The notes under the pieces are model-generated. The model was not told the origin of the DNA, did no database searches, and saw nothing but the letters and a program-made list of their open reading frames with translations. Shown here piece by piece: positions 48,561 to 49,462 of a stretch of 64,000 nt of DNA. Each line of letters begins with the position of its first letter. Position 1 is the stretch's first letter. A program made the position numbers and the translations under genes. The stretch covers positions 179,305 to 243,304 of the forward strand of contig CBDEGK010000004.1 of the NCBI GenBank assembly GCA_965237855.1. Reading direction: 5' to 3'. This stretch comes from Halieaceae bacterium. Its GTDB lineage: Bacteria; Pseudomonadota; Gammaproteobacteria; Pseudomonadales; Halieaceae.

Positions 48561-48826
48561 TACTCGGAGATGCAGCTATCACCTCCATGTGGACTCTGGC
48601 GCTCGAAGTCGTAGGGCCTGCTTTTGGCACATAGCGTGCACTGAGTTTGAGCTAGGATTCTCAAAGAGCATGCATTTAGTGGAGTACTTTGTAGTCGTTA
48701 GTGTTTGTGTATACTCAAGGCATGTTGCTATGCACCCACCTATCAACGTTATTGAGTCGTAAACCAAAAGCCTTACCGATGGTGTACAAGTTATATATCA
48801 CCGAGACATCCAATAAGCTGTTATAA
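48561..48826 (+). repeat. diverged, longer leader-module-like sequence ending in the core GTTATAA
   Basis: The 3' part, TTATTGAGTCGTAAACC...GAGACATCCAATAAGCTG|TTATAA, is alignable with the ends of the other leader modules. Confidence 0.45.
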
Positions 48827-48850
48827 AGCATTAGCAATCCAAACTTATAT

Positions 48851-48926
48851 GCGGGGTTAACTCAGTTGGTAGAGTGTCAGCTTCCCAAGCTGAATGTCGC
48901 GAGTTCGAATCTCGTACCCCGCTCCA
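48851..48926 (+). tRNA. tRNA-Gly (anticodon CCC)
   Basis: A 76-nt cloverleaf folded by hand. Acceptor GCGGGGT/ACCCCGC, D stem ACTC/GAGT, anticodon stem TCAGC/GCTGA with loop TTCCCAA, 5-nt variable loop, T stem GCGAG/CTCGT with loop TTCGAAT, discriminator U, encoded CCA. Confidence 0.9.
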
Positions 48927-48988
48927 TTACTAACCAGTCCAACTAGATATTGTCAGTTTGCAATTTACAAAGCTAAGCACTTCACAAT

Positions 48989-49351
48989 ATGGGCAACACA
49001 AATTGTGCTGGCAAAAGGAAAAAACGCTTTAAACAGGCTAGGAGTAATTGCACATGCCATATAACAAGTTCGGGCACAAACGCGCTTCGCGCTGGACTCG
49101 TGGCTTCGCCACTTGCCTTCTTTGTGACGGGGGCGCAATGGTTCACAGCGATCGTTCTCAGTAATCAGCTGATACAAGGTGCCTCGCCCTTCCACTGGTT
49201 GGAGATAATTCTGTACGTAACGATTGGTGTTTTTTTAGTAGGGATTGCGACGGACAATGCGCGAGTGCATGCTGTGTTGGCTATTTGGCCGCCACTGTTC
49301 TTTGTGTTGCTCATAGTTCAGATGTCGCAGCCAGAGCAGCTCTTTCGGTAG
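48989..49351 (+). CDS. hypothetical small membrane protein (start uncertain)
   Basis: 120-aa ORF whose distal 80 aa are hydrophobic (2-3 TM helices). It lies between the tRNA and an attC. No similarity was recognised. Confidence 0.3.
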   Translation: MGNTNCAGKRKKRFKQARSNCTCHITSSGTNALRAGLVASPLAFFVTGAQWFTAIVLSNQLIQGASPFHWLEIILYVTIGVFLVGIATDNARVHAVLAIWPPLFFVLLIVQMSQPEQLFR

Positions 49352-49402
49352 CTGGTGCCGACATAGGGTTTTCAGGAACGAAAGGAGCGAACACATGGAA
49401 AC

Positions 49403-49462
49403 TCATAACAAGCGCAAGCAAGCAGACTTGCGTGCTGCCAGCTGCTGTTTCGGACGTTATGT
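49403..49462 (+). other. attC recombination site (X4)
   Basis: The site reads TCATAAC-aag-CGCAAGCAAGCAG...CTGCTGTTTCG-gac-GTTATGT. The L arms pair with two extrahelical bases. R'' is complementary in 6 of 7 positions to the core GTTATAA at 48820. Confidence 0.6.

Follow-up and report, generated by a model that had tools for sequence, protein, structure and literature searches.

Integron cassettes typically carry a single promoterless protein-coding open reading frame (ORF), although this is the usual cargo and not a strict defining feature. The locus described here raises the question of whether a cassette can carry a tRNA gene in its place. In a 64,000-nt stretch of the genome of a Halieaceae bacterium (assembly GCA_965237855.1, contig CBDEGK010000004.1; hereafter the window, with positions counted from its first base), a tRNA-Gly(CCC) gene lies within a row of small gene cassettes with recombination sites of the attC type. 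An earlier note on this DNA had proposed that the tRNA is cassette cargo and had named as the alternative an ancestral tRNA gene around which the array grew. Our analysis favors the first proposal. We think it probable that the tRNA-Gly(CCC) gene, a xenologue, is the sole recognizable cargo of a small integron cassette that was later fused to its neighbor. Three things support this: the cassette junction before the tRNA, the attC sites recognized by a model built from other species, and the foreign type of the tRNA.

tRNA genes in the window were called with ARAGORN and with the Rfam tRNA model RF00005 (gathering score 29). ARAGORN reported one tRNA, a 76-nt tRNA-Gly with anticodon CCC on the forward strand, and RF00005 matched bases 48851 to 48923 over its full length (1 to 71 of 71) at 69.5 bits. 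Both agree with the gene that the earlier note had folded by hand, with its U discriminator and CCA. Read by hand, the acceptor stem is GCGGGGU/ACCCCGC, the D arm ACUC-AGUUGGUA-GAGU, the anticodon arm UCAGC-UUCCCAA-GCUGA, the variable loop AUGUC (5 nt), and the T arm GCGAG-UUCGAAU-CUCGU; the discriminator is U73, CCA is encoded in the gene, and every stem is completely paired. Bacterial glycyl-tRNA synthetase (GlyRS) recognizes its tRNAs by G1:C72, C2:G71, G3:C70, C35, C36, and the discriminator U73, and this full identity set is found in the array tRNA. The 4.58-Mb genome has 43 tRNAs, one of which is a tRNA-Gly(CCC), the array copy; the count of further copies that the earlier note had proposed comes to none.

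The tRNA unit begins the way a cassette does, at the G↓TT crossover (arrow) of a core site (GTTRRRY). Here the sequence is GCTG↓TTATAA, found where the earlier note had placed it, with the crossover between G48820 and T48821, and the tRNA begins after 30 nt. Other cassettes of the array have leaders of 25 to 65 nt, so that the tRNA leader falls in range. The 12 bases AATAAGCTGTTA at this junction are the same as those at the junction before the attC-bounded cassette E, and they differ by one base from those at the junctions preceding cassettes A and H (cassettes are named here by their attC sites, listed in the table below). The junction AATA(A/G)GCTG↓TTA precedes each of cassettes A, E, and H, and the tRNA lies 30 nt past another copy of it. 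Furthermore, a 33-nt stretch at the tRNA junction is homologous to module ends of repeat family D13 at 45776, 51162, and 54246, which precede three attC-bounded or attC-type cassettes. A 14-mer with at most two changes from TGAATAAGCTGTTA precedes cassettes at 45788, 48810, 51174, 54258, and 57525.

The 3' boundary depends on recognizing attC sites. In a thermodynamic test, bottom-strand folds were no better than those of shuffled sequences (z-scores of -0.44 for the attC at 49403 and 0.02 for the attC of the aac(3)-family cassette). Because folding energy did not discriminate, a covariance model was used in its place. A layout first seen in two attCs of the array was written as the composite motif TAAYAAG-N8-14-CGCGC-N2-6-GCGCYGGAC. 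A scan of 185,579 species genomes with this motif matched at least 119 species, nearly all of them marine gammaproteobacteria. From other species, 95 complete attC sites were extracted, and 88 of them were aligned to give the covariance model R1. R1 is trained on one attC class, picked by a motif derived partly from the array, which gives its hits A, E, and X only partial independence from the way the model was designed; H and C are without the motif and hence are independent. The window was searched with filters off, and the E-values are rough because the calibration was short. With these limits, the window contains exactly five R1 matches with E < 1e-3, each of them on the forward strand and inside the array; the best match outside these five scored 11.3 bits (E = 1.7). 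The R'' box is complementary to the start of its own cassette at 7 of 7 positions in A, 6 of 7 in E, and 8 of 8 in H.

This class of attC is nearly unchanged across the at least 119 marine gammaproteobacterial species (loci L252 to L370; C and L numbers are our own handles), which include Halieaceae, Microbulbifer, Marinomonas, Shewanella, Aliidiomarina, Pseudomonas, and Vibrio. Its consensus, nnnTAACAAG-TCAATCAAC-TTCGCGCCTTCGGCGCCGGAC-hairpin-CCGGTTATTGA-GGCGTTAnnn, is typically 75 nt long, and its L'' and L' arms covary.

Downstream of the tRNA, the one complete attC is site C, which the earlier note had assigned to the tRNA cassette. As an attC it is genuine: the model built from other species' sites accepts it and so does not give the rejection that the earlier note had named as refuting the cargo reading, its crossover falls at G49456↓T49457, and its R boxes pair in the bottom-strand DNA fold. 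Its assignment is what has to change. Between the tRNA and site C lies a listed ORF of 120 amino acids (aa; 48989 to 49351), whose homologues P0002 to P0005 are 185 to 200 aa long and can be aligned with it only at residues ~102 to 185, with 62 to 70% identity. The homology starts at the F codons at 49118 to 49123, and no trace of the N-terminal ~105 residues of the 185-aa protein was found in any frame of 48400 to 49600. The N terminus of the listed ORF is probably unrelated and spurious, judging from these alignments. Elsewhere the gene is a cassette gene in its own right, with homologue P0004 being the first cassette beside an integron integrase (TIGR02249, 425 bits) and homologue P0003 situated in a long cassette array. 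Since these homologues are full-length, bona fide cassettes, attC C is assigned by homology to a 5'-truncated neighboring cassette that is fused to the tRNA cassette. The 185-aa protein is a multipass membrane protein without a Pfam family; other copies are at L164:6001-6558 and L165:2435-3037, and the full-length copy beside the integrase is on a metagenome contig.

The tRNA's own attC is site X, which reads ATATAAC-AAG-TTCGGGCACA-AACGCGCTTCGCGCTGGAC-TCGTGGCTTCGCCAC and lies directly upstream of the start of the homology to the 185-aa gene. On both strands of the whole genome, the composite motif occurs three times, in A, E, and X. R1 gives X an E-value of 1e-4 for the window and 0.007 genome-wide. 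The inner segment of X is the same as in an attC of another species (L288), and its second hairpin is also found in the attCs of L281, L310, L324, and L356. In the R1 global alignment, X has GCAATGG at the R' position, where 88 of the 88 training sites have GTT, and its R-box pairs are nonstandard. R'', L'', and both inner hairpins are kept, and standard L' and R' are absent. Because the motif is unique to A, E, and X, the hairpins are shared with other attCs, and the 3' stretch is coding sequence of the 185-aa family, X is, on this reading of the bases, an attC of which the 5' two-thirds are left, with the break at about 49113 to 49120. The 3' part was also considered as the rest of a degenerate but complete attC and was rejected, as this stretch is homologous to the 185-aa gene (FFVTGA... 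versus LFATGA...) and is without the invariant GTT.

Between the junction and X, there is no recognizable gene apart from the tRNA, so that the usual single protein ORF is not found in this unit. The trailer between the tRNA and X has no Rfam match at E ≤ 1, a fold z-score of +0.82, and no homology to tRNA loci of the donor type.

Taken together, these features suggest a history. The original cassette would have been about 0.3 kb long, with G↓TTATAA at 48821, the leader, the tRNA, the trailer, and its own attC from 49059. It would once have adjoined the cassette of the 185-aa gene, and a single deletion would have taken the 3' third of X, the leader of the next cassette, and ~105 codons of its gene. 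This deletion would have fused both cassettes into a unit ending at attC C, and what could be excised now would be 48821 to 49456 (636 nt). Because the array has no integrase in this genome, the unit would be sedentary now unless an integron integrase (IntI) acts in trans.

Table 1. Features of the cassette array and of the tRNA cassette (window coordinates)
Feature	Position	Strand	Basis
Integrase-less cassette array	45595-58064	+	Low GC, repeats, R1 attC matches, Pfam/NCBIfam annotation
attC A	46325-46414	+	R1, 74.4 bits
Upstream-element end and cassette 5' junction (...CCAATAAGCTG, crossover at its end)	48798-48820	+	Homology to other module ends; ends at crossover G48820
Cassette leader, 30 nt (TTATAAAGCATTAGCAATCCAAACTTATAT)	48821-48850	+	Sequence reading
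tRNA-Gly(CCC)	48851-48926	+	ARAGORN; Rfam, 69.5 bits; Porticoccaceae-type sequence
Trailer, 132 nt	48927-49058	+	No recognizable gene, RNA family, or stable fold
attC X, remnant proper: R'' ATATAAC, AAG, L'' TTCGGGCACA, hairpin CGCGC-TT-CGCGC, TGGAC, hairpin GTGGCTTCGCCAC	49059-49112	+	Motif and R1
attC X, span of R1 hit	49059-49141	+	R1, 25.0 bits
3' remnant (~78 codons and stop) of 185-aa membrane-protein cassette gene	49118-49351	+	Homology
attC C, of truncated 185-aa-gene cassette; only complete attC downstream of tRNA	49403-49462	+	R1, 22.9 bits (E = 4.8e-4 for the window)
attC E	51696-51770	+	R1, 78.2 bits
attC H, of aac(3)-family cassette	55196-55285	+	R1, 28.1 bits

The source of the tRNA was sought among 80 other Halieaceae-like genomes from 40 genera, none of the same genus, with the CCC anticodon loop plus T arm as the pattern; the mdh gene of the window is closest to those of Halioglobus, Haliea, and Halieaceae genomes (81 to 84% identity). 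A tRNA-Gly(CCC) is present in 56 of the 80 genomes, and 24 are without any. At all 29 loci that were read, the gene of the family is 74 nt long, with a 4-nt variable loop and an GGGTTCGATTCCC-like T arm, and the 76-nt type was found in none of the 80 genomes. The native 74-nt gene has a DinG-like helicase gene on one side and a DUF446 gene on the other in about 11 of these 29 loci. In the host of the array, the helicase and DUF446 genes abut stop to start, with no tRNA (C8:905502-907850, locus L170). Of 400 other genomes sampled from the order, only 3 have the 76-nt type. Among the 185,579 species genomes it is present in 28, mostly from Porticoccus, Porticoccaceae, and unclassified gammaproteobacteria, each time in an ordinary-looking chromosomal context. 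Two of these tRNAs, in NVXH01000008 (Porticoccaceae NORP16) and JABHWT010000295, are identical to the array tRNA over 76 of 76 nt. By these comparisons, the array tRNA is a xenologue foreign to the family of its host, which has no native copy and whose commonest native locus is empty.

The surroundings are those of an integrase-less array, a cluster of attC sites lacking an integron integrase (CALIN; Cury et al. 2016, PMC4889954). The five R1 matches lie within 9 kb on one strand, where at least two clustered same-strand attCs define the class, and there is no IntI. The top TIGR02249 match, in a search for an integron integrase that found none in the window or the 4.58-Mb genome, has 81.8 bits against a cutoff of 265 and looks Xer-like. 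The set that makes a complete integron (intI, attI, and the Pc promoter at the head of the array) is not present. The array is bounded by an RHS/YD-repeat gene on the left and by core genes on the right, and it holds a same-orientation row of small ORFs, including an Antibiotic_NAT/AAC(3)-family gene. Its GC content is 0.46 to 0.55 over ~45.5 to 58.1 kb, compared with 0.57 to 0.60 outside, and the lowest bin of the window (0.458, at 48 to 49 kb) contains the tRNA.

About 10 copies of a bipartite palindromic repeat lie in the array, among them both of those that the earlier note had marked, at 48473 and 49457. One copy is interrupted at CTAGGT^ by an IS30-family element (NF033563, 289 bits; 46433 to 47602, reverse strand), with inverted repeats at 46427 to 46452 and 47628 to 47653 and AGGT on both sides. 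A leader module that precedes four cassettes (45766 to 45804, 51152 to 51190, 54236 to 54274, and ~57503 to 57541) ends in a 39-nt miniature attC-like pair, ATATAACA...GTTATGT in the copy at 54236 to 54274; it is below standard attC length, and the attC model gives it 8.8 bits only. More integrase-less arrays lie at C1:107.4-109.5 kb, C1:391.6-401.6 kb, C8:116-124 kb, and C8:236.6-247 kb, with 16 attC model matches genome-wide, and these arrays share many copies of the bipartite repeat. By exact match, the core of this repeat is absent from every other species genome scanned.

Other tRNA genes of the genome were considered as possible cassettes. tRNA-Asn(GTT) (C1:387699-387774) and tRNA-Val(GAC) (C1:389898-389974) were rejected, as they have core-like GC (0.57 to 0.58), lie just outside the second C1 array, and are probably core genes; they are the genome's only copies, and beyond them, at 381.7 kb, there is a single repeat half. 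tRNA-Sec (C3:19266-19359; L371:4270-4359, reverse strand) is not counted as a cassette either, as two ORFs and a reverse gene separate it from an attC and none follows it. It has a score of 65.3 bits with RF01852. Small ORFs surround it in another islet of low GC, and an attC-like site lies 1.5 kb upstream of it, at C3:20853-20912 (28 bits). The genome also has two tRNA-Pro(CGG) genes, of 75 nt (C8:327873-327947) and 77 nt (C8:106308-106384), the shorter of which might be acquired.

Several points weigh against the tRNA as cassette cargo. Site X is only a remnant, with no standard R' and no L' arm, and its score comes mostly from its 5' half. The R'' boxes of X and C match the cassette start at only 6 of 7 positions, as the earlier note had counted for TCATAAC against GTTATAA, and with three free positions such a match is weak evidence. 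A two-hexamer consensus scan found no sigma-70 promoter upstream of the tRNA, and the TIGR02249 search leaves the genome without an integron integrase. No second copy of the tRNA cassette was found in two metagenome scans, one for the tRNA 3' end followed by TAAYAAG at 119 to 149 nt and one for the exact junction of tRNA and trailer. No tRNA stands beside an attC in 119 same-class attC loci or in 80 IntI loci, and mobility of the cassette is unobserved. In these rough screens, the 119 attC loci (796 kb) contain two tRNAs, neither within 2.7 kb of the attC and one of them a tRNA-Ser at an island attachment site, and the 80 integrase loci (337 kb on the array side) contain one, a tRNA-Met with a duplicated 3' end.

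The last point against it is also the best-surviving alternative: a short piece of foreign chromosome bearing the tRNA may have been inserted into a cassette already in place, perhaps one without an ORF, through illegitimate recombination or through the rearrangement that truncated the neighboring gene, and not by integron capture. The region has visibly been rearranged, since both an attC and an ORF are truncated, the IS30-family element lies 1.2 kb upstream, and the collections searched hold no other tRNA cassette. However, the tRNA sits at the distance from the crossover that other cassettes' leaders have, and the unit from junction to X holds nothing else recognizable. BLAST of 48381 to 49560 against 29 loci of the same tRNA type matched only the tRNA and 2 to 7 nt, so that a fragment taken at random would need to end unusually close to the gene on both sides. 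There are also no insertion-sequence ends or target duplications beside the tRNA. We therefore consider this route unlikely, if still deserving of some weight.

Acquisition as a cassette would leave the question of whether the tRNA is used. TG at 48819 to 48820 joins the leader to form TGTTATAAA (48819 to 48827), which spans the junction, resembles an extended -10 element, and lies 24 to 32 nt before the mature 5' end. It is possible, from its sequence, that this is an extended -10 promoter with a start ~15 nt before the mature 5' end. Transcription would come from this element or by read-through from upstream, followed by processing by RNase P and charging by GlyRS. Among the tRNA genes of the genome, this is the only one for a Gly tRNA with C34, and its product would be the cell's only C34 reader of GGG. 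In 1531 long core ORFs, this codon accounts for 12.6% of the codons for Gly (10.2 per 1000 codons). In 12 cassette ORFs it makes up 15.6%, so that the comparison of codon usage suggested by the earlier note shows no enrichment and gives no support to a supply of codons for cassette genes. Because the cassette ORFs are not enriched in GGG, a service of the tRNA to the genome as a whole is more plausible than one to the array. Given that 24 of the 80 relatives are without a tRNA-Gly(CCC), it is probably helpful rather than essential.

Alternatively, the tRNA could be a silent passenger that is neither transcribed nor used, with GGG read by tRNA-Gly(UCC), as in those 24 genomes. Consistent with this, there is no canonical promoter, cassettes are usually promoterless, the array has no end with Pc and integrase, many relatives do without this tRNA, and GGG usage in the cassettes is not raised. 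Even so, we judge silence rather improbable, because the gene is intact, two other species have native tRNAs of exactly its sequence, no stem has an unpaired position, and the Gly identity set is complete. The possible extended -10 element and the share of GGG among core Gly codons point the same way.

We reject the ancestral chromosomal tRNA, the alternative of the earlier note, as very improbable. tRNA genes are classic integration targets for islands, and two other loci, in unrelated genomes and near integron or attC sequence, bear tRNA 3'-end duplications made by islands: the tRNA-Met at L240:1364-1437 and a tRNA-Ser at L333:3669-3760, each with its own 3' end duplicated, the usual signature of island attachment, and neither cassette-borne. 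However, the array has no duplicated tRNA 3' end, with only a weak 27-nt inverted match at 58585 inside an ORF, and the tRNA lies 3.3 kb inside the array and not at its edge, with cassette-type sites within 30 nt and 132 nt of it. In four of the four relatives that share mdh-tetR synteny, there is no tRNA within 10 kb of mdh, a check that leaves the cassette reading unharmed. The rejection follows from this absence, together with the distribution of the tRNA type in the family, which carries its 74-nt type elsewhere, and in the order, and with the empty native locus.

An assembly artifact, in which repeats shared between at least four arrays or contaminating DNA (estimated at 1.2%) misplaced a foreign tRNA fragment, is equally hard to credit. 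The contig is 1.14 Mb long and has core genes to the left and to the right, and each flank of the tRNA runs into a feature specific to the array, the module-end junction on one and an attC of its subfamily on the other. Moreover, 246 nt and 132 nt of unique sequence separate the tRNA from the nearest repeats.

If the tRNA-Gly(CCC) gene is indeed cassette cargo, a broader statement can be put forward tentatively, with rather more doubt than confidence: integrons can take up tRNA genes and carry them as stand-alone cassettes, and here a xenologue replaces a missing native tRNA. A canonical tRNA as sole cargo would widen the cassette pool from protein genes to the translation machinery. It would also bear on cassette genesis, as a mechanism that joins an attC to a 76-nt RNA gene with only a 30-nt leader has to work without any signal from an mRNA or an ORF. 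Acquisition together with the missing native gene would be a concrete example of a tRNA on a mobile element taking a decoding role, and, if the replacement is true, of an integron replacing a part of the translation apparatus. If the tRNA is silent, it is a mere curiosity in a decaying array. Full-text literature searches of incomplete coverage turned up no paper that describes a tRNA carried by an integron cassette, and in the IntegronFinder paper (PMC4889954) tRNAs appear only as an example of covariance models. So far, the tRNA-bearing integron cassette is known from one partly decayed CALIN copy.

Compared with the cassettes of other CALINs, the unit has the same G↓TT start, the same attC layout (R''-L''...L'-R'), the same placement in a one-orientation, low-GC array without intI, and typical neighbors (an aac(3)-family gene and small membrane proteins). 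It differs in its tRNA cargo and in having its own attC truncated and fused to the remnant of the next cassette, and the extra bipartite repeat and leader module of this array are not seen at sampled attCs of other species. ORF-less, noncoding integron cassettes are known from cassette surveys, and promoters or small RNAs with regulatory roles have been proposed as their content. The tRNA cassette resembles these in its size of ~0.3 kb, in having no protein-coding gene, and in that its product, if any, is an RNA; the difference is that the cargo here is a canonical tRNA gene.

The tRNA itself can be compared with chromosomal genes of two types. With Porticoccaceae-type tRNA-Gly(CCC) genes such as that of NVXH01000008, it shares 100% identity over 76 nt, the 5-nt variable loop, and the T arm. 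In contrast, those genes do not lie beside an attC, and many of them are preceded by a -10 element resembling TATCAT and followed by a run of T. With the native genes of Halieaceae-like genomes it shares the anticodon and the Gly identity pairs of the acceptor stem, whereas these genes are 74 nt long, their variable loop has 4 nt, and their D and T arms differ from those of the array tRNA. tRNAs also travel on other mobile elements, as phage-encoded tRNAs and as tRNA arrays on plasmids or integrative conjugative elements. As in those systems, an element-borne tRNA would here supplement or replace host decoding for a given codon. Unlike them, the carrier here is an integron cassette, moved by recombination of attC with attI or attC, and it bears a single tRNA that shows no sign of matching the codon usage of its element.

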